A DNA stretch of 5,644 nt from a virus: positions 1-5,644 of the IMG/VR virus record IMGVR_UViG_3300045988_000393; one strand, written 5' to 3'. The position numbers were made by a program, and so were the translations under genes. Of this stretch, positions 1-5,628 are shown piece by piece (position 1 is the stretch's first letter; the number at the start of each line of letters is the position of its first letter). The notes beneath the pieces were generated by a model. That model had not been told where the DNA came from. It saw nothing but the letters and a program-made list of their open reading frames with translations, and did no database searches.

Positions 1-55
1 GGAAAATCGCACGGCGGCGGCGGCGGAAGAAGAAGGTGAAAAAATGGGATGCAGT
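1..55. repeat. Terminal redundancy, copy 1 (identical to 5590-5644). This is an assembly signature of a circular genome with a 5,589-nt unit.
   Basis: I compared the two ends base by base. 'ggaaaatcgcacggcggcggcggcggaagaagaaggtgaaaaaatgggatgcagt' occurs at 1-55 and again at 5590-5644. Positions 1-39 read in frame as GKSHGGGGGRRR*, which is the C-terminus of the 4834..5628 ORF. The ATG at 44 corresponds to the ATG at 5633. Confidence 0.95.
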
Positions 56-1066
56 AGGCCATTAATCCGGTTCTATTCTCCTGAAAACAAAGAAGCCAGC
101 GGCAGGGTTTACACCCTGTCGCGTTTTTGTGAGGAGAGAGCACACAAAAAACTTAAATATGAAGATTTGATGTACAGAACGGACGTAATGTTAATACCAT
201 GTGGACAGTGTATAGGATGTAGAATCGCACAACGTGAAGACTGGACAACAAGAATTGAAATGGAAGCAAGAGGATATCCGAAAAATCAAGTATGGTTTGT
301 TACACTAACATACGATGATGACCACGTACCGGGCATGATCGTAAAAACGGGTGAAATCCTCAGAAAAGTACAATACACATGGAGACCGGGCGCAGAGCGT
401 CCAGAAAGCGTGCAAATCTTACTCTATACAGATATCCAAAAATTTATAAAAAGGCTCAGAAAAGCCACAGGAGACGAGCTAAGATACTTTTGTGCGGGTG
501 AATACGGAGAAAAAACAGCAAGACCACACTACCACATGATTTTGTACGGTTGGAAACCAACAGACCTTGAACCAATCTACAAAAAAAGATGTAACGGTTA
601 CTTTACAAGTAAAACAATGGCAGACCTATGGGGGATGGGTCAAATTCAGATAGCACAAGCAGTGCCAGAAACCTATAGATATGTTGCAGGGTATGTTACA
701 AAAAAAATGTACGAAATTGACGGAAAAAAAGCAAACTCGTACTACGATTTAGGCCAGCCAAAACCATTTGCAAAAATGTCACTAAAACCGGGCATCGGAG
801 ATAAATGGTACAAAGAGCACAAAGAAGAAATCTGGAAACAGGGCTATATTCAGTGCACAAACGGAAAAAGAGCAAGAATACCACGATTTTACGAAAAACA
901 AATGGAAGCAGAAGACCCAATGAGACTGTGGCAGATTAAAAAAGAAAGACAAGCAAAAATCATAGCAACCAACCGCTACACATACCAAAACAAAGACTAT
1001 GCAGAAGATTTAAAAACAAAAGAGAGAATAACCAAAAAGAAAATGCACGCATCTGGAAAGCTTTAA
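44..1066 (+). CDS. VP4: Replication initiation protein VP4: Microviridae gpA-like HUH rolling-circle endonuclease, 340 aa.
   Basis: Cys cluster PCGQCIGCR (aa 52-60). Motif 1 FVTLTY (aa 85-90, nt 296-313). HUH motif PHYHMILYG (aa 161-169; HYH at nt 527-535). Double-tyrosine motif YVAGYVTKK (aa 213-221, nt 680-706), comparable to the phiX174 gpA YVAKYVNK active site. SD AAGGTGA (33-39) lies 4 nt upstream of the ATG and overlaps the VP2 stop codon. Confidence 0.92.
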   Translation: MGCSRPLIRFYSPENKEASGRVYTLSRFCEERAHKKLKYEDLMYRTDVMLIPCGQCIGCRIAQREDWTTRIEMEARGYPKNQVWFVTLTYDDDHVPGMIVKTGEILRKVQYTWRPGAERPESVQILLYTDIQKFIKRLRKATGDELRYFCAGEYGEKTARPHYHMILYGWKPTDLEPIYKKRCNGYFTSKTMADLWGMGQIQIAQAVPETYRYVAGYVTKKMYEIDGKKANSYYDLGQPKPFAKMSLKPGIGDKWYKEHKEEIWKQGYIQCTNGKRARIPRFYEKQMEAEDPMRLWQIKKERQAKIIATNRYTYQNKDYAEDLKTKERITKKKMHASGKL

Positions 1067-1077
1067 GCGGTGTCACC

Positions 1078-1120
1078 TAGCCAAGTACCTATCAAGTAAG
1101 GTACTTGGCTATATTATTTT
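1078..1120 (+). terminator. Perfect 13-bp-stem hairpin followed by a T-rich tract. Putative intrinsic terminator ending the genome-length transcription unit; alternatively an ssDNA structural element.
   Basis: TAGCCAAGTACCT (1078-1090) is the exact reverse complement of AGGTACTTGGCTA (1099-1111). The loop is ATCAAGTA (8 nt), followed by TATTATTTT (1112-1120). The element begins 12 nt after the VP4 stop (TAA 1064-1066). Confidence 0.5.
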
Positions 1121-1462: not shown

Positions 1463-1551
1463 ACAGAAAAGAGGTGAAAGCTATTCAAACGCTTGTTACC
1501 CAACATTCAATGGCTTATGAAAATACGCAAAGATAAAAGAGGATTAACAAA

Positions 1552-1941
1552 ATGATTAAATGCTATATCATGGATACAGACGCAAATGAAAATGTTGGCA
1601 AACACTTTAAAGTAAAAGAATTTGCGTGCAAAGATGGTTCACAGGTGGTTTTCATCGACAGTTATCTAGTATCAATTCTGGACATTCTCAGAAACCAAGT
1701 TGGAAAGCCAGTACACATAAACAGTGGATACCGGACACCGACAAGGAATAAAACGGTAGGCGGTGCAAAGTACTCATACCATATGCGGGGAATGGCCGCA
1801 GACATTCGGGTTGATGGCATGACCGCAATAGAAATCGCCAACAAACTGGAAAAAATCATCCCGTGCGGCTGCGGCATCATCGTATACAGTACATGGGTAC
1901 ACATCGACACGCGCACCAAAGCATACAGAAAGGGGGTGTAA
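1552..1941 (+). CDS. Peptidase M15A (Peptidase_M15_3 / LAS-fold zinc D-Ala-D-Ala carboxypeptidase-like) peptidoglycan hydrolase; putative endolysin, 129 aa.
   Basis: Family signature SGYRTPTRN...GG...SYHMRGMAAD, i.e. S-x-H-x-x-G-x-A-x-D with H77 and D84, plus the C-terminal WVHID (H117, D119). These are the H/D/H zinc ligands of the LAS enzymes. The N-terminal FKVKEFACKDG is typical of the family. SD AAGAGGA (1537-1543) lies 8 nt upstream of the ATG. No N-terminal signal peptide or TM segment. Confidence 0.88.
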   Translation: MIKCYIMDTDANENVGKHFKVKEFACKDGSQVVFIDSYLVSILDILRNQVGKPVHINSGYRTPTRNKTVGGAKYSYHMRGMAADIRVDGMTAIEIANKLEKIIPCGCGIIVYSTWVHIDTRTKAYRKGV

Positions 1942-1945
1942 ACAA

Positions 1946-2062
1946 ATGGCTCTTATCAGTATCAAAGACGTCAAGCAGGCAATCAAAATCATGATGCAAA
2001 TTCTGGAAAAGCTGGACGAAATCTATCACGCACTGCACGACCAGCCGAACGAAAAGGAGTAA
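1946..2062 (+). CDS. Small hypothetical protein, 38 aa (MALISIKDVKQAIKIMMQILEKLDEIYHALHDQPNEKE). Not in the supplied ORF track.
   Basis: ATG at 1946 lies 4 nt after the peptidase stop and is preceded by SD AAGGGGGTG (1929-1937). The reading frame fills the whole inter-ORF gap. Its last codons carry the SD (AAGGAG, 2054-2059) of the next gene. The sequence looks like an amphipathic helix and I recognise no homology. Confidence 0.4.
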   Translation: MALISIKDVKQAIKIMMQILEKLDEIYHALHDQPNEKE

Positions 2063-2068
2063 ACAAAG

Positions 2069-2296
2069 ATGATTGCAAAATCATGGAACGTCAGAGACCA
2101 GACCGAAAATGAATTAAGATTTCAAGAAGAAAAACTTTATACAAACATCGAAGCAAAGTACAGGCTCATAAAAAAAGTATCCAAAATCGAAGATGCAAAA
2201 AAAATCATCGATGAAATATGGAGAATGAAAAAATGGGCAAACGACATAGAATTAGAGCTAATGAGAAGGGAGTTCAACAATGGCGCATCGGAGTAG
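2069..2296 (+). CDS. Hypothetical protein, 75 aa, charged and helical (coiled-coil-like).
   Basis: ATG at 2069 with SD AAGGAG (2054-2059) 9 nt upstream. Same strand and same packing as its neighbours. No recognisable motif. Confidence 0.5.
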   Translation: MIAKSWNVRDQTENELRFQEEKLYTNIEAKYRLIKKVSKIEDAKKIIDEIWRMKKWANDIELELMRREFNNGASE

Positions 2297-2399
2297 AACC
2301 ACGAAGAGTAAGGACGGAAAGGTATTCAACCAGACCGCAAACAAAACGAAACGTATCAACGTTCAGAGTAAGCCAATGCGGGGGGGTACACGGCTGTGA
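2280..2399 (+). CDS. Small basic DNA-binding/packaging peptide, J-like / gokushovirus VP8 (ORF8)-like, 39 aa (MAHRSRTTKSKDGKVFNQTANKTKRINVQSKPMRGGTRL). Not in the supplied ORF track.
   Basis: Hand translation from ATG 2280 to TGA 2397-2399. SD AAGGGAG (2266-2272) lies 7 nt upstream. There are 10 K/R in 39 aa. The layout is an N-terminal basic patch, then 'F..TA', then a C-terminal PMRGG-x-RL. This matches my recollection of the small arginine/lysine-rich proteins of gokushoviruses. The stop overlaps the next gene's GTG start (GTGA). Confidence 0.6.
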   Translation: MAHRSRTTKSKDGKVFNQTANKTKRINVQSKPMRGGTRL

Positions 2400-2638
2400 T
2401 TCATAACTATTACACAATCAGAGACAAAGTTGCAAAAAAATTTGTACACGTCTGCGAGAGCGAAAACGACCAGACCATGGAACGAATGTGCAGAATCCTT
2501 GAGAAGGATGAAAAATCATTCATTGGACAGAGCGCAGGAGACTATGTTGCATATCTGTGTGCGAAGTTCAACGACGAAAACGGCGAATTTCAGAAAGTAG
2601 AACTTACCAAAGTATGGGAAGGTAAAACCAATGAGTAA
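2396..2638 (+). CDS. VP5-like non-structural protein (gokushovirus ORF5 family; proposed ssDNA synthesis/packaging role), 80 aa, GTG start.
   Basis: The N-terminus YYTIRDKVAKKF...ENDQTMERM and the later DYVAYLCAKFNDENGEF fit the remembered VP5 pattern (Y-x-[IV]-x-D-x-K-A..F ... ND..A.R.F ... ED[FY].L..[IV]G.[FY]D..TG). GTG at 2396 is the only start codon after the in-frame stop at 2369-2371. A G7 run (2380-2386) 9 nt upstream may act as an SD. Confidence 0.55.
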   Translation: MIHNYYTIRDKVAKKFVHVCESENDQTMERMCRILEKDEKSFIGQSAGDYVAYLCAKFNDENGEFQKVELTKVWEGKTNE

Positions 2639-3062
2639 AGTATACAGCAGATACAACCTGCCACCGAAAGAAGCAAGCACAGCAGGAGAACGAACACGAG
2701 ACACATACAAGTGGACAATGAACGAAAAAGGGGAAAAAGAACTAAAGCGCGATGCAGACATCGACCGGCAGGCTGAAATTCAATCATATGCCGAAGAATG
2801 CGACATTAAAAACATCGTGGCAAGAGCAGCATTTGACCCGAATTTTGCACAAGCACTAGCAAGTGGAGCAATGGACGGAAGCAACGTAGATATCACAGAT
2901 TACCCAGAAAACATCCACGAGCTTAAAAAGATGGCAGAAAAAGCAGGAAAAACCATCGAAGAAATCAATACAGAACTAAACAAACCGAAAAAAGAAGAAG
3001 AAGCAGAACCGAAAGAAGCAGAACCAAAAAAAGAAGAGGTGAAGCAGATTGAACCGGAATAA
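2631..3062 (+). CDS. VP3: Internal scaffolding protein VP3-like, 143 aa, with a low-complexity K/E/P-rich C-terminal tail.
   Basis: Size, position immediately upstream of and overlapping VP1, and a central segment (EIQSYAEECDIKNIVARA) resembling gokushovirus VP3. The ATG overlaps the preceding stop (ATGAGTAA). SD-like GGGAAGGT (2616-2623). Confidence 0.65.
   Translation: MSKVYSRYNLPPKEASTAGERTRDTYKWTMNEKGEKELKRDADIDRQAEIQSYAEECDIKNIVARAAFDPNFAQALASGAMDGSNVDITDYPENIHELKKMAEKAGKTIEEINTELNKPKKEEEAEPKEAEPKKEEVKQIEPE
3000..3029 (+). repeat. In-frame 15-nt tandem repeat inside the VP3 tail (EAEPK x2).
   Basis: GAAGCAGAACCGAAA (3000-3014) and GAAGCAGAACCAAAA (3015-3029) differ by one synonymous base. 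Confidence 0.85.
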
Positions 3063-4794
3063 CGAAGCACATTTTAACCAAATTCCAAAGACACACATCA
3101 GCCGTTCGAGATTCAAGCGGGACCAGAATGTGAAATTCACGTTTGACGCCGGAAAGTTAATCCCATTTTATGTGGATGAAGTGCTGCCGGGTGACACATT
3201 CAGTGTAGACACGGCAGGCCTTGTGCGTATGACCACGCCAATCTTCCCGGTAATGGACAATGCATACTTAGATGTATACTATTTCTTCGTACCTAACCGG
3301 ATTGTATGGGACCACTGGAAAGAATTCATGGGTGAAAACACAACCGGAGCATGGGAACAGAAAACAGAATACAGCGTACCGCAACAGTACCTAACAGGAT
3401 ATACCATGAAAAACGAAACAGACATAGAAGCATCACCAATTGGAACAGTACCAGAAGAAGAATCCATACTCGACTATATGGGCATCCCAACAAAGTGCAA
3501 TCGATTACCCGCAATTACACCTGAAGAAGCAAAAAAAGACATCAGTATAAACGCACTACCAATCAGGGGATATGTAAAAATCTGGAACGAATGGTTTAGG
3601 GAACAAAACTTAACAGACCCAGTAAAAGAACTAAAAGACGATAAACCAGAGGTATATGTAAAACTGGACAAAAGTCACGAATGGACAGACACACAGAAAA
3701 ACTTAACCGCAGCAACGGGCGGAGAGCCGCTGCCTGTCGCAAAATATCACGACTACTTTACAAGTGCACTGCCGGCACCACAAAAGGGGCCAAGCGTAGC
3801 TATCGGAATCAGCGGAGATGCAAGATTACAATGGTCATTTACAGTAGAAGAGCTGCAGAACTATGGAATCATGACAAGCAACGGCGCAACGCACCTTGTA
3901 CCGGCAAGTGGCAACACTTTAGGAGCGCCGACAAGGGCCGACACAAACGGACTTCCGCGCGTGTTACTGGGAAAAGATTCGGGCGGCACGAGTACATGGG
4001 TACCGATGCAAGCACGTCTTGACAATGTAGAAGCAGCAACAGTAAACCAACTGCGAGAAGCATTTGCAATACAGCACTACTACGAAGCACTTGCACGTGG
4101 CGGCAGTCGATACAGAGAAATTATTCGCAGCGTGTTTGGAACGCTTATTTCAGATAAAACGGTGCAGATTCCTGAATATCTGGGCGGCGGTCGTTATCCC
4201 ATCAATATGTCTCAGGTTGTACAGACGAGTAGCACAACGGCAGACAGTCCGCAGGGCAACACGGCTGCAATCAGTGTAACACCATTCAATGAAAACAGCT
4301 TTACAAAATCGTTCGAGGAACACGGGTTCATCATCGGTGTATGCTGCGTAAGACACGACCACACGTATCAGCAGGGTATCGAAAGAATGTGGAGCAGACA
4401 GGACGCACTAGACTACTACTATCCACAGTTCGCAAATCTGGGCGAGCAGCCTGTAAAAGTCAAAGAAATCTATACGGGAAAAGAACTCACAAAAGCAAAT
4501 ACAGAAGAAGTGTTTGGTTACCAAGAGGCATGGAGCGAATACAGAATGAAGCCTAACAGAGTAGCGGGCAAATTCCGCTCAAACGCAACAGGCACATTGG
4601 ACACGTGGCACTATGCTGACAACTACGACAAGCGGCCATATCTGTCAGACGAATGGATTAAGGAAGGAAAGCAAGAAATTCAGCGTACTCTTGCAGTACA
4701 GGACGAGCCGCAGTTTATTGCAGATTTTCTAATTCAAAACAATACAACCAGACCGATGCCGCTTTACAGCGTGCCGGGTCTCGAAAAACTGTAA
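3049..4794 (+). CDS. VP1: Major capsid protein VP1 (Microviridae F-protein family), 581 aa, TTG start.
   Basis: The N-terminus FNQIPKTHISRSRFKRDQNVKFTFDAGKLIPFYVDEVLPGDTF is the characteristic VP1/F N-terminal signature (RS.F ... T...G.L.P....EVLPGDT). Length is typical for the family. The in-frame stop at 3040-3042 leaves TTG 3049 as the only start upstream of the conserved motif. SD GAGGTG (3036-3041) lies 7 nt upstream. Confidence 0.93.
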   Translation: MNRNNEAHFNQIPKTHISRSRFKRDQNVKFTFDAGKLIPFYVDEVLPGDTFSVDTAGLVRMTTPIFPVMDNAYLDVYYFFVPNRIVWDHWKEFMGENTTGAWEQKTEYSVPQQYLTGYTMKNETDIEASPIGTVPEEESILDYMGIPTKCNRLPAITPEEAKKDISINALPIRGYVKIWNEWFREQNLTDPVKELKDDKPEVYVKLDKSHEWTDTQKNLTAATGGEPLPVAKYHDYFTSALPAPQKGPSVAIGISGDARLQWSFTVEELQNYGIMTSNGATHLVPASGNTLGAPTRADTNGLPRVLLGKDSGGTSTWVPMQARLDNVEAATVNQLREAFAIQHYYEALARGGSRYREIIRSVFGTLISDKTVQIPEYLGGGRYPINMSQVVQTSSTTADSPQGNTAAISVTPFNENSFTKSFEEHGFIIGVCCVRHDHTYQQGIERMWSRQDALDYYYPQFANLGEQPVKVKEIYTGKELTKANTEEVFGYQEAWSEYRMKPNRVAGKFRSNATGTLDTWHYADNYDKRPYLSDEWIKEGKQEIQRTLAVQDEPQFIADFLIQNNTTRPMPLYSVPGLEKL

Positions 4795-4805: not shown

Positions 4806-4830
4806 GCCCGGAGAAATCCGGGCAATTTTT
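4806..4830 (+). terminator. GC-rich hairpin with a GAAA tetraloop plus T5 tract between VP1 and VP2. Putative leaky intrinsic terminator, attenuator or mRNA stabiliser.
   Basis: GCCCGGA (4806-4812) / GAAA (4813-4816) / TCCGGGC (4817-4823) forms a perfect 7-bp stem, followed by AATTTTT (4824-4830). It lies between the VP1 stop (4792-4794) and the VP2 ATG (4834). Confidence 0.55.
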
Positions 4831-4833
4831 AAA

Positions 4834-5628
4834 ATGGCATTTTCACTATTATCAGCAATACCAATGATTACAGGCGGTATCAGCGCAGTAAGCGGGCTTG
4901 TATCAAGTGGTGCACAACTGGCAAATGCATTTAAAGGCATGTCAGGCGGCGGGACAAGCTGGAATCAAAGCGGAAACGTCAGCCATGGAGAAAGCGCAAG
5001 CACAGGTGCAAGCGGCGTAGACTACAACGCAGCACAAGCAATGAACACCAATCTATGGAATCAAGCACTTGCAGGACAAAGCGCACAAGCAACACAGAAC
5101 GCAAAAAACAGCATCTATGCGATGGGCTTAAACACCTTAGGAGCAATTACACAGGGCGTATATAACAAAATCTCACAAGATGCAGCCATGAACTACAACT
5201 CAGCAGAAGCGCAAAAAGCTAGAGACTGGTCAGAAAAAATGAGCAATACGGCCTATCAAAGAGCCGTAAAAGACATGAGAGCAGCAGGAATAAACCCAAT
5301 CCTTGCATACACGCAAGGCGGAGCAAGCACGCCAAGCAGTGCACAAGGAACAGTAAGCGCACAGAGTATCAGCGCGCCAAGTGTAGGAACACAATCAAGT
5401 GGAATGCCAACACCACAGCAGCCATTACCGGGATGGAGCAAAACAAAAAGCTGGTCAAAAACAGACTCAAGCGGATACAGCACAGGAGGCAGTACGCAAA
5501 GCTATGGGTCAAAATGGATGGACATACCAAACGGAGAATTTAAAAACTGGTTAAGCGAAGATAAAACATCAGGCTTTAAAGCAGGCGGAGGAAAATCGCA
5601 CGGCGGCGGCGGCGGAAGAAGAAGGTGA
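4834..5628 (+). CDS. VP2: Minor capsid / DNA pilot protein VP2 (phiX174 H analogue), 264 aa.
   Basis: Hydrophobic Gly/Ser/Ala-rich N-terminus (MAFSLLSAIPMITGGISAVSGLV). Conserved core NYNSAEAQKARDWSEKMSNTAYQRAVKDMRAAGINPILAY, typical of gokushovirus VP2. S/T/G/Q-rich remainder. Located immediately downstream of VP1. Confidence 0.85.
   Translation: MAFSLLSAIPMITGGISAVSGLVSSGAQLANAFKGMSGGGTSWNQSGNVSHGESASTGASGVDYNAAQAMNTNLWNQALAGQSAQATQNAKNSIYAMGLNTLGAITQGVYNKISQDAAMNYNSAEAQKARDWSEKMSNTAYQRAVKDMRAAGINPILAYTQGGASTPSSAQGTVSAQSISAPSVGTQSSGMPTPQQPLPGWSKTKSWSKTDSSGYSTGGSTQSYGSKWMDIPNGEFKNWLSEDKTSGFKAGGGKSHGGGGGRRR

Follow-up and report, generated by a model that had tools for sequence, protein, structure and literature searches.

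How a wall-degrading peptidase encoded by a very small phage would reach its substrate is the question raised by a gene at positions 1552 to 1941 of the viral record IMGVR_UViG_3300045988_000393. The whole stretch of DNA analysed here, 5,644 nucleotides in length, is referred to as the window. A previous interpretation of the DNA made without database searches (the sequence-only reading) proposed that this 129-aa ORF encodes an M15A/LAS zinc peptidase, that it was acquired by a microvirus in an atypical event, and that neither the protein nor its neighbours provide a signal peptide or a holin. The gene and its catalytic motifs are located as follows.

1552..1941, plus strand: peptidase gene, ATG start, 129 aa plus stop; putative endolysin, single-domain Peptidase_M15_3 / MEROPS M15A (LAS-fold) zinc metallopeptidase
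1774..1803, plus strand: first zinc-ligand motif S75-Y-H77-M-R-G80-M-A82-A-D84, read from the translation, with H77 and D84 as zinc ligands
1900..1908, plus strand: H117-I-D119 codons with the second zinc-ligand His, in the context W115-V-H117-x-D119

Family, fold and genome context of the peptidase

A search against Pfam showed that the protein matches PF08291 (Peptidase_M15_3) over the full profile (positions 1–108 of 108) with E=8.9e-23, which is beyond chance, and with a score of 80.9 bits, far above the gathering score of 23.2 bits. PF05951 also matched (E=1.4e-9), the PHROG family phrog_894, annotated as “endolysin,” was found with E=3.7e-42, and a profile comparison with PDB sequences returned 1lbu (E=1.3e-13). 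The zinc-ligand signature named in the sequence-only reading (H77, D84, H117) was reproduced from the translation at exactly these positions, and the S75-H77-G80-A82-D84 motif aligned with SRHMYGHAAD of 1lbu. These five residues are invariant in all 85 microvirus homologues and in a diverse alignment of 51 sequences (A2), while the H117/D119 motif is invariant in 85/85 microvirus homologues and conserved at 90% or more in A2. The ORF is intact in all 85 microvirus copies and is under purifying selection (dN/dS 0.127). On sequence comparison, the catalytic motif of the microvirus clade was indistinguishable from that of tailed-phage and prophage lysins.

The AlphaFold (AF2) model built from alignment A2 had a pLDDT of 97.6 and a pTM of 0.91 and consisted of one compact globular domain spanning residues 2–127. 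A first model, based on 30 sequences that were at least 81% identical, had been discarded (pLDDT 64, with no significant Foldseek matches). The top PDB entry in the Foldseek search with the retained model was 1lbu (E=7.9e-5, probability 1.0, TMq 0.64), followed by VanXY, VanY, Hedgehog N-domains, ChiX, LdcB, and Ply500; the predicted LAS fold was thus recovered with 1lbu as the best match and other LAS folds behind it. Predicted structures of tailed-phage peptidases from BFVD superposed on the model with TM values of 0.93–0.97. The full-length PF08291 match and the LAS-fold model confirmed that the protein is a genuine M15A/Peptidase_M15_3 LAS zinc peptidase (MEROPS clan MD). Judged by its sequence, it would bind zinc and hydrolyse a peptidoglycan bond, the exact bond being unpredictable in a family that comprises DD-carboxypeptidases, LD-endopeptidases, and L-Ala-D-Glu peptidases.

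The window is a gokushovirus-type Microviridae genome, as indicated by matches to PF02305 (E=5.6e-146), PF23343, PF09675, PF20577, and phrog_8742. VP1 (Phage_F), the VP2 pilot protein, the VP4 Rep, the VP3 scaffold, and VP5 are all encoded on one strand of a genome of about 5–6 kb. The best DNA matches of the window were Microviridae/Gokushovirus records; its VP1 shared about 40–68% identity with those of relatives over the aligned part, and an exact 30-mer from this VP1 had no match in IMG/VR. Three candidate expression signals precede the peptidase.

1078..1111, plus strand: terminator-like perfect hairpin of 13 bp followed by an A/T-rich tail, immediately 3' of the VP4 stop codon
1434..1462, plus strand: best sigma-70-like promoter match, TTGACA-17-TACAAT (11/12), 90 nt upstream of the peptidase; putative promoter function
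1536..1542, plus strand: Shine-Dalgarno-like AAAGAGG (GAGG core), 9 nt before the peptidase ATG

It had been suggested that the peptidase is the first gene after the only consensus promoter and has a strong Shine-Dalgarno sequence. The best promoter match does lie upstream of the gene, and its −35 element sits within a 25-nt inverted repeat (1399–1423 / 1426–1450). However, six promoter-like sites were found in the window, including two 10/12 matches at 1283–1312 and 1544–1571, which is fewer than the 8.9±3.2 expected from shuffling; calling the site the only consensus promoter was therefore an overstatement. A promoter match of at least 10/12 was present no more than 170 nt upstream of the peptidase in 37/85 relatives. 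The GAGG-core Shine-Dalgarno sequence is also present, but it is good rather than exceptional; a motif of this type precedes the peptidase in 74 of the 85 relatives. The hairpin would end the transcription unit preceding the peptidase, and perfect hairpins of at least 9 bp occur within 120 nt past VP4 in 45/81 relatives. Between 1552 and 4794, successive reading frames overlap or leave only short gaps, and the peptidase probably stands first after the promoter in one packed transcription unit with the order peptidase-ORF38-ORF75-ORF39-VP5-VP3-VP1.

Distribution and origin of the gene

Homologues of the peptidase fell into 1557 protein clusters, mostly from contigs of 5.6–5.9 kb, and the gene was found at 292 IMG/VR loci. 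The closest relatives shared 94.6% amino acid identity in GenBank and 96% in IMG/VR, and GenBank relatives such as KX513876 are already labelled “peptidase M15.” In many of them the peptidase is kept in the same slot, downstream of VP4 and ahead of the small late genes. The gene had been regarded as an atypical acquisition with only sporadic precedents, a view that does not agree with the literature. M15_3 peptidases of human-gut Gokushovirinae were described by Roux et al. (2012, PLoS One, PMC3394797), who attributed them to horizontal transfer from Faecalibacterium-type (pro)phages and suggested that they act as endolysins; peptidases were later treated as recurrent lysis-associated accessory genes of microviruses (Kirchberger et al., 2022, PMC9239249). 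Microviruses of the gut have been known to carry genes of this kind since 2012, and very often do, so the finding is correct but ordinary. It matters little as such: the family of which this is one more copy has been published and annotated in these phages for more than ten years.

The proposed horizontal acquisition was supported. Outside the microviruses, its nearest homologues are lysins of the Clostridia (pro)phage type with at most 52% identity, and a neighbour-joining tree, computed without support values, nested the microvirus clade among Clostridia homologues. A contig scan with A3, an alignment tighter than A2, showed that the nearest cellular homologues are overwhelmingly from Clostridia, although the scan used one motif pattern and its taxon list is therefore biased towards that motif. 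In 50 of 66 prophage or tailed-phage loci, a same-strand ORF with a transmembrane (TM) segment lies within 900 nt of the lysin. The peptidase was probably captured by an ancestor of this gut-gokushovirus group, the donors being tailed (pro)phages whose hosts were gut bacteria of the Clostridia type; the gene occupies an accessory slot that follows VP4 and precedes the small late genes, and it has probably moved from one microvirus backbone to another since then.

The Clostridia affinity of the peptidase also provides a host lead for a gut phage group that has no cultured host. A Clostridia-type host is suggested by the phylogeny of the peptidase, the strong Shine-Dalgarno usage, and the sigma-A-like promoter; the scarcity of documented microviruses of Gram-positive bacteria weighs against it. 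Longer contigs were considered as prophages that might reveal the host, and none was usable: L177 is a concatenate of two different microviruses, L178 comprises 1.58 copies of a genome, with the junction to a bacterial DUF2079 gene lying within VP1, and in L041 a microvirus is linked to a fragment of a tailed phage (portal / head morphogenesis).

Membrane segments and access to the cell wall

TM segments were called at a Kyte-Doolittle 19-residue mean (KD19) of at least 1.6, a threshold passed by phiX174 E, MS2 L, and lambda S105, which served as controls. The maximum KD19 of the peptidase was 1.22. Its N-terminus (MIKCYIMDTDANENVGKH) is acidic and has no hydrophobic core, and the model shows a globular fold from residue 2 onwards; in agreement with the sequence-only reading, neither hydropathy nor the AF2 model revealed a signal peptide, a SAR domain, or a TM segment. 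The only TM-like segment on the coding strand of the window belongs to VP2, of which residues 6–234 are covered by the match to the pilot-protein family phrog_8742.

4846..4902, plus strand: hydrophobic N-terminal segment of the VP2 pilot protein, residues 5–23 (KD19=1.73)

The small coding-strand ORFs of the window all remained below 1.6. The best of them (1.52), an overprinted 71-aa ORF at 4064–4279 inside VP1, was rejected as it is not conserved in relatives, and a hydrophobic 49-aa ORF of one relative (L078) was likewise discarded because it overprints the conserved N-terminal part of VP1 and is confined to that genome. Hydrophobic ORFs on the minus strand, about 26 per genome, were dismissed as a composition artefact because the coding strand is A-rich (38% A). 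The coding strands of 90 related microvirus genomes held a mean of 0.1 TM-like ORFs each, in line with the earlier statement that no obvious holin lies near the peptidase. The residual value of the locus is a clean negative: a small coding-strand ORF above the threshold was found in only 3/92 related genomes and was positionally conserved in none. The endolysin component of a canonical holin-endolysin cassette is therefore present, whereas a holin and a signal or SAR sequence were not found; an amurin of the phiX174 E type was not found either, the genome having no hydrophobic coding-strand ORF and encoding a muralytic-type enzyme instead.

We consider it likely, with a probability of roughly 0.7, that the peptidase is a cytoplasmic endolysin that reaches the wall after a non-holin phage function has breached the membrane. 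The protein would be soluble and made in the cytoplasm, would cut a peptide bond in the stem peptides or cross-links of the host, and would serve the phage as its wall-degrading lysis enzyme. Lacking an export signal, and encoded in a genome without a holin, the peptidase most likely stays in the cytoplasm until the membrane is compromised; it would accumulate there and reach the wall only once another phage function has acted, a step of access that we purely infer. The membrane-compromising function would be common to the peptidase-less relatives, because those must also lyse their hosts, and the peptidase may be an add-on that completes or speeds up the destruction of the wall.

Another possibility, which we regard as doubtful, is a holin-independent export of the peptidase, either by a non-classical host route or with a helper phage protein such as ORF38, an ORF75 chaperone, or surplus VP2. 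Gp1/LysA of mycobacteriophage Ms6 is a chaperone precedent for lysin export. The sequence-only reading had named the two small ORFs that follow the peptidase as candidates for such a role.

1946..2062, plus strand: ORF38, conserved 38-aa amphipathic-helix protein (dN/dS 0.116; context gene)
2069..2296, plus strand: ORF75, conserved 75-aa charged helical protein (dN/dS 0.206; context gene)

ORF38 lies directly 3' of the peptidase in the window clade, is highly conserved (62–100% identity across 84 loci), and is strongly amphipathic, with a hydrophobic moment muH(18) of 0.64. The block formed by the peptidase and ORF38 shares about 92% nucleotide identity with MZ821031, compared with at most 75% for the remaining genome, and the VP2 segment described above, the only TM-like one of the genome, also fits an assisted export. 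ORF75 has homologues in 25 GenBank gokushovirus records. However, ORF38 is net acidic (charge −2), hydropathy revealed no TM segment in ORF38 or ORF75, and neither had a family match in Pfam, PHROG, or NCBIfam. Furthermore, five peptidase-less gokushoviruses (L085–L089), which have the same backbone genes, carry ORF38 homologues detected by tblastn, each with a neighbouring 68-aa ORF that occupies the place of ORF75 and gave no tblastn match. In a second clade, the homologues of ORF38 and ORF75 occur in another order and apart from the peptidase, and no homologues of either were found alongside donor-type lysins. Because ORF38, together with a 68-aa ORF in the place of ORF75, is present in peptidase-less relatives and the gene order differs in the second clade, both are conserved lineage genes, and their role as peptidase-specific partners was rejected. 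If such an export did take place, it would represent a genuinely holin-independent route of a cytoplasmic endolysin to the wall.

It is unlikely, too, that the peptidase acts as an enzymatic “amurin,” which would remain in the cytoplasm and hydrolyse soluble or lipid-linked peptidoglycan precursors (D-Ala-D-Ala, UDP-MurNAc-pentapeptide, or the stem peptide of lipid II), so that wall synthesis is starved, growing cells lyse, and no holin is needed. This would explain a lysin-type enzyme in a lineage without holin, signal peptide, or membrane protein, and it accords with the near absence of TM ORFs from the 90 related genomes. Small phages are known to lyse their hosts by blocking peptidoglycan synthesis, as do E of phiX174, A2 of Qbeta, and LysM. 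The fold neighbours VanXY and VanY are precursor-cleaving vancomycin-resistance enzymes, and VanX/VanXY act in the cytoplasm. On the other hand, its closest homologues (about 45–52% identity), from tailed phages and prophages, are endolysins encoded in cassettes that also contain holins, and the microvirus clade shares their catalytic motif. Likewise, 1LBU, the best match in both structure and sequence, and MepK, the nearest NCBIfam family, act outside the cytoplasm on the assembled or nascent wall. As an abundant gut clade, these microviruses offer a convenient system for distinguishing holin-less endolysin action from an attack on cytoplasmic precursors.

An entry function, in which a virion-associated hydrolase opens the wall locally for DNA delivery, appears very improbable. 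Many phages carry virion-associated lysins, and in some tailed phages an M15A domain forms part of a tail or needle protein (Gp5 OB-fold fusions); however, the peptidase is a stand-alone protein of 14.5 kDa without fusion to a structural protein, is encoded among small non-structural genes, is missing in relatives whose capsid and pilot genes are the same, and has its 45–52% identical homologues in lysis cassettes. To our knowledge, T=1 microvirus capsids have no slot for a virion-associated peptidoglycan hydrolase. A precedent for an entry role is the peptidoglycan hydrolase of microvirus Ebor, which was detected in virions, although in trace amount only (PMC11980548). Finally, the idea of a decaying passenger gene without function, to which the absence of this accessory gene from some close relatives might point, is effectively refuted by the conservation data given above (dN/dS, invariant catalytic residues, and 85 intact copies) and is at odds with the retention of the gene in a genome of about 5.6 kb under strong size constraint.

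Comparison with known enzymes and lysis systems

The zinc D-Ala-D-Ala carboxypeptidase of Streptomyces albus G (1LBU) shares the LAS fold and the S-x-H-x-x-G-x-A-x-D motif with the microvirus peptidase at 21% identity. We take it to be the type enzyme of MEROPS M15A; it is presumably a secreted protein of 213 aa with an extra N-terminal peptidoglycan-binding domain. The peptidoglycan L,D-endopeptidase MepK of E. coli (YcbK, DUF882) has a related catalytic domain (NF053624, E=2.9e-14). Since the score of 53.3 bits is below the NCBIfam equivalog cutoff of 185, the peptidase is not MepK; moreover, MepK is exported to the periplasm, whereas the microvirus protein has no signal.

Single-domain M15 endolysins of tailed phages (phages of gut Clostridia and Vibrio) are closer, with about 45% identity, a length of 115–139 aa, and the same motif. 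These endolysins adjoin membrane proteins or holins in lysis cassettes, unlike the microvirus gene. The annotated endolysin of Faecalibacterium phage FP_Toutatis (AUV56799), 45.7% identical to the microvirus peptidase, has XkdX upstream, and two proteins with TM helices are encoded after the peptidase in Vibrio phage 1.105.O.

Among microviruses, phiX174 E also provides a lysis function in a coding-limited genome, as an amurin inhibiting MraY. It is a small, overprinted, non-enzymatic membrane protein with a KD19 of 2.79, whereas the best small ORF of the window reaches 1.52 and is not conserved. Gp7 of Ebor (146 aa) is an accessory wall-degrading enzyme of a microvirus and is likened to the peptidase by role and size only; it degrades peptidoglycan in vitro, has an HHpred match to PDB 6SSC, and is, according to its authors, the first experimentally verified peptidoglycan hydrolase of an ssDNA phage (PMC11980548). 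Ebor belongs to Tainavirinae, has an alphaproteobacterial host, and encodes a predicted 45-aa membrane protein, which the lineage of the window does not have.

The closest counterparts are the gut Gokushovirinae peptidases (KX513876, MZ821031, KT264793, MG945383). The clade-wide absence of TM ORFs is not discussed in the sections of Roux et al. (2012, PMC3394797) considered here. The peptidases agree in Pfam family, size, and position, as well as in the inferred Clostridiales/Faecalibacterium origin and the proposed endolysin role. Nothing of substance differs in the peptidase itself, whereas the backbone of the window is a distinct genome.

Genome organization and the peptidase family

The window (5644 nt) appeared to be a complete gokushovirus-type microvirus genome, and ORF and family annotation placed every gene on the plus strand. 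Its closest DNA matches were Microviridae/Gokushovirus records from the faeces of human, pig, and monkey, and no single match covered more than 35% of the genome. The order of features was as follows:

44-1066, plus strand, VP4 replication initiator
1067-1551, non-coding region of 485 nt between VP4 and the peptidase
1552-1941, plus strand, peptidase ORF
1946-2062, plus strand, ORF38
2069-2296, plus strand, ORF75
2280-2399, plus strand, basic 39-aa protein (phrog_10695)
2396-2638, plus strand, VP5, with a GTG start
2631-3062, plus strand, VP3 scaffold
3049-4794, plus strand, VP1 capsid
4834-5628, plus strand, VP2 pilot

Between VP1 and VP2 (4806-4823) lies a hairpin of 7 bp rich in GC, GCCCGGAGAAATCCGGGC, with AATTTTTAAA following it, that resembles a terminator or attenuator on both strands.

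Checking of the translation showed that the peptidase ORF, its length, and its residue numbering had been correctly given in the sequence-only reading. The zinc motifs read off the translation were S75-Y-H77-M-R-G80-M-A82-A-D84 and W115-V-H117-I-D119. The protein matched Pfam PF08291 (Peptidase_M15_3) over its whole length (E=8.9e-23), PHROG 894 “endolysin” (E=3.7e-42), and PF05951 (DUF882/MepK-like; E=1.4e-9). As a single-sequence query it matched PDB 1LBU, the Streptomyces albus zinc DD-carboxypeptidase, across the zinc motif (E=1.3e-5), and a profile of 51 diverse homologs matched 1LBU and VanY with E-values of 1.3e-13 and 0.0075, respectively. The first AlphaFold model rested on a shallow alignment, scored a pLDDT of only 64, and was discarded as poor; the model based on a diverse alignment reached a pLDDT of 97.6 and a pTM of 0.91. 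The top Foldseek match of the latter in the PDB was again 1LBU (E=7.9e-5, probability 1.0, TMq 0.64), followed by VanXY, VanY, Hedgehog N-terminal domains, ChiX, LdcB, and Ply500, a set that constitutes the LAS fold family. In a viral structure library the best matches came from tailed phages (“Peptidase” proteins, TM 0.93-0.97), with several “Microvirus mar..” peptidases likewise among the top structures. Residues G59, Y60, R61, S75, H77, G80, A82, D84, W115, H117, and D119 were invariant in all 85 microvirus copies, and the gene was under purifying selection (median dN/dS 0.127). Since motif, Pfam, PHROG, PDB, fold, conservation, and selection results agreed, the assignment to Peptidase_M15_3/LAS is secure, and the family proposed from the sequence alone was upheld by both the HMM search and the structure prediction.

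The Shine-Dalgarno (SD) sequence of the peptidase gene has a GAGG core 9 nt 5' of the ATG. A single consensus promoter had been claimed upstream of the gene; the best match of the genome (11/12) does lie there, at a distance of 90 nt, but the window holds six promoter-like sites against 8.9±3.2 expected from shuffled sequences. The -35 element of this match falls within a 25-nt inverted repeat (1399-1450), and only 37 of 85 relatives had a match of at least 10/12 within 170 nt upstream of the peptidase. A promoter at this position is thus plausible but unproven. The non-coding region itself was dense in structure, with a perfect 13-bp hairpin (1078-1111), a 31-nt tandem repeat (1115-1176) carrying the GC-rich palindrome CACGCGCGCGCACGCGCGTG in each copy, and a (G/A)TGTTGAAAA(C)-like motif that recurs several times across 1220-1390. 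The sequence GTTGAAAA was ~200-fold enriched in the same region of 81 relatives (3.96/kb versus 0.02/kb), 57 of which had a GC-rich block there. This non-coding stretch could be an origin, an iteron, or a regulatory region.

Distribution, exchange, and origin of the peptidase gene

Comparison of the window proteins with 84 related genomes showed that the peptidase (69-96% identity) and ORF38 (62-100%) were the best-conserved products; within its aligned portion, VP1 showed an identity of only about 40-68%. The same peptidase type, with 70-86% identity, also occurred in a second lineage of backbones (VP4 about 36%, VP1 about 41%). KT264792 (4269-4610) and MG945781 (1395-1763) share the window backbone (VP4 71-75%, ORF38 84-88%), and the peptidase at the same locus was only about 48% identical, a case of either a replaced allele or a second gene acquired in that accessory slot. 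The gene was absent from five relatives of 5.2-5.5 kb (KT264799, MG945157, MG945423, MG945135, and KT264798). Their slot was occupied by other small ORFs of no assigned function, such as a Cys-rich 58-aa ORF in MG945157 and 70-aa and 65-aa ORFs in MG945135 and KT264798; no transmembrane (TM) segment was found in the slot ORFs of these five genomes.

Nucleotide identity to MZ821031 was about 91-92% in the peptidase-ORF38 block (1540-2109) and in a portion of the repeats upstream of it (1158-1382), and 67-75% in the remainder of the genome. This mosaicism indicates that the peptidase-ORF38 module has recently recombined. The peptidase crosses lineages, is replaced or absent in relatives, and lies in the block shared with MZ821031; its behavior is therefore that of a cassette that can be exchanged, placed in an accessory slot 3' of the VP4-proximal non-coding region. 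Three longer public contigs with the peptidase were rejected as prophages and classed as assembly chimeras: L177 is a head-to-tail fusion of two distinct microviruses, L178 contains 1.58 genome copies fused within VP1 to a bacterial DUF2079 gene, and L041 fuses a microvirus to a tailed-phage portal/head-morphogenesis fragment.

A scan of one bacterial genome per species revealed no microvirus-type copy of the peptidase. The best cellular homologs had at most 52% identity and came overwhelmingly from Clostridia (Faecalibacterium, Oscillospiraceae, Acutalibacteraceae, Lachnospiraceae, and Eubacteriales). On a neighbor-joining tree without support values, the window-type copies formed a single clade, with other microvirus copies as its sister group, that was embedded among these Clostridia sequences. 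Purine-rich SD sequences at nearly every gene, together with the sigma-A-like promoter, give only a hint that a Firmicutes-type host may fit better than a Bacteroidota host.

Neighboring genes, membrane proteins, and the putative route to the cell wall

The best-supported reading is that the LAS zinc peptidase serves as an endolysin made in the cytoplasm. Its family, fold, catalytic residues, selection, and distribution, as well as the lack of TM ORFs, were shown directly, and we infer its host, role, timing, activity, and route of access: it would be expressed from a promoter-proximal position in a tightly packed operon, and its access to the wall would have to wait until some phage function other than a holin damages the membrane; the same function would also be present in the peptidase-less relatives.

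The lack of a holin and signal, first noted for this genome, held across the clade. ORFs were considered TM-like at a Kyte-Doolittle 19-residue mean (KD19) of at least 1.6; the controls phiX174 E (2.79), MS2 L (1.74), and lambda S105 (1.61) all lie above this cutoff. Coding strands of 90 related microvirus genomes contained 0.1 such ORFs per genome, and a second scan, which covered 92 genomes, gave a median per-genome maximum KD19 of 1.22 for small ORFs. Within the window, only the N-terminal part of the VP2 pilot protein exceeded the threshold (1.73). Among small ORFs, the highest-scoring one (4064-4279, KD19 1.52) was rejected as a holin, being overprinted in VP1 and not conserved. About 26 minus-strand ORFs per genome had a TM-like segment because the coding strand is A-rich (A 38.4%, T 18.2% in the window); these are spurious and a trap in holin hunting. 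Lysis without any membrane protein is an issue that concerns gokushoviruses as a whole, not the window in particular.

Holin-independent export of the peptidase, aided by ORF38, ORF75, VP2, or the host, is rather unlikely. ORF38 (dN/dS 0.116, purifying selection) and ORF75 (0.206) are real genes; the former encodes a 38-aa protein with a strongly amphipathic helix (muH 0.64), net acidic and without a TM segment, and the latter a conserved, charged helical protein of 75 aa. Their proposed partnership with the peptidase was not borne out: tblastn detected ORF38 homologs in the five peptidase-less relatives too, the second clade has the order peptidase-(ORF75)-ORF39-ORF38-VP5, and neither gene had a homolog beside donor-type lysins at prophage or tailed-phage loci. 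At the ORF75 position, the peptidase-less relatives have a 68-aa ORF with no tblastn match to ORF75. Both are core genes of the lineage rather than peptidase accessories, and either could belong to an ancestral lysis function. ORF38 had no family match, and 26 of 31 GenBank records carrying it had no annotated feature under the match. ORF75 overlaps at its 3' end the basic 39-aa ORF, whose stop overlaps the VP5 GTG start; neither is annotated in most deposited relatives. The 39-aa product is presumably a DNA-binding protein because the equivalent ORF is so annotated in Dulem virus 195.

Of 66 loci in prophages or tailed phages, 50 had a same-strand TM ORF within 900 nt of the homologous peptidase (a crude count without background control), and annotated examples had lysis-cassette neighbors. 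Action in the cytoplasm as a precursor hydrolase, an “enzymatic amurin,” is improbable for the microvirus enzyme, and a virion-associated entry enzyme is very improbable. A decaying passenger gene is effectively refuted, the catalytic residues being invariant.

Comparison with known microvirus peptidases

The peptidase gene had been seen as an atypical acquisition; the observation itself stands, and the interpretation was borne out only in part, as microvirus M15_3 genes are already known and common. GenBank relatives, annotated as “peptidase M15” or “similar to peptidase,” reached 94.6% identity, 1557 clusters in a large protein collection matched, most from 5.6-5.9 kb contigs, and 292 IMG/VR loci carried the gene. 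Roux et al. (2012; PMC3394797) describe such genes in five human-gut Gokushovirinae and six Alpavirinae, demonstrate horizontal acquisition, group the gokushovirus copies with Faecalibacterium and other Clostridiales, note that prophage homologs adjoin holins, and propose an endolysin role. M15 peptidases have also been reported from cultured marine and Bacteroides microviruses, and the peptidoglycan hydrolase of microvirus Ebor was shown to degrade peptidoglycan (PMC11980548). Kirchberger et al. (2022; PMC9239249) described microvirus peptidases as recurrent accessory genes linked to lysis and a ~700-nt peptidase region swapped between distant microvirus families, and the cassette-like behavior of the peptidase in our comparison agrees with this published picture.
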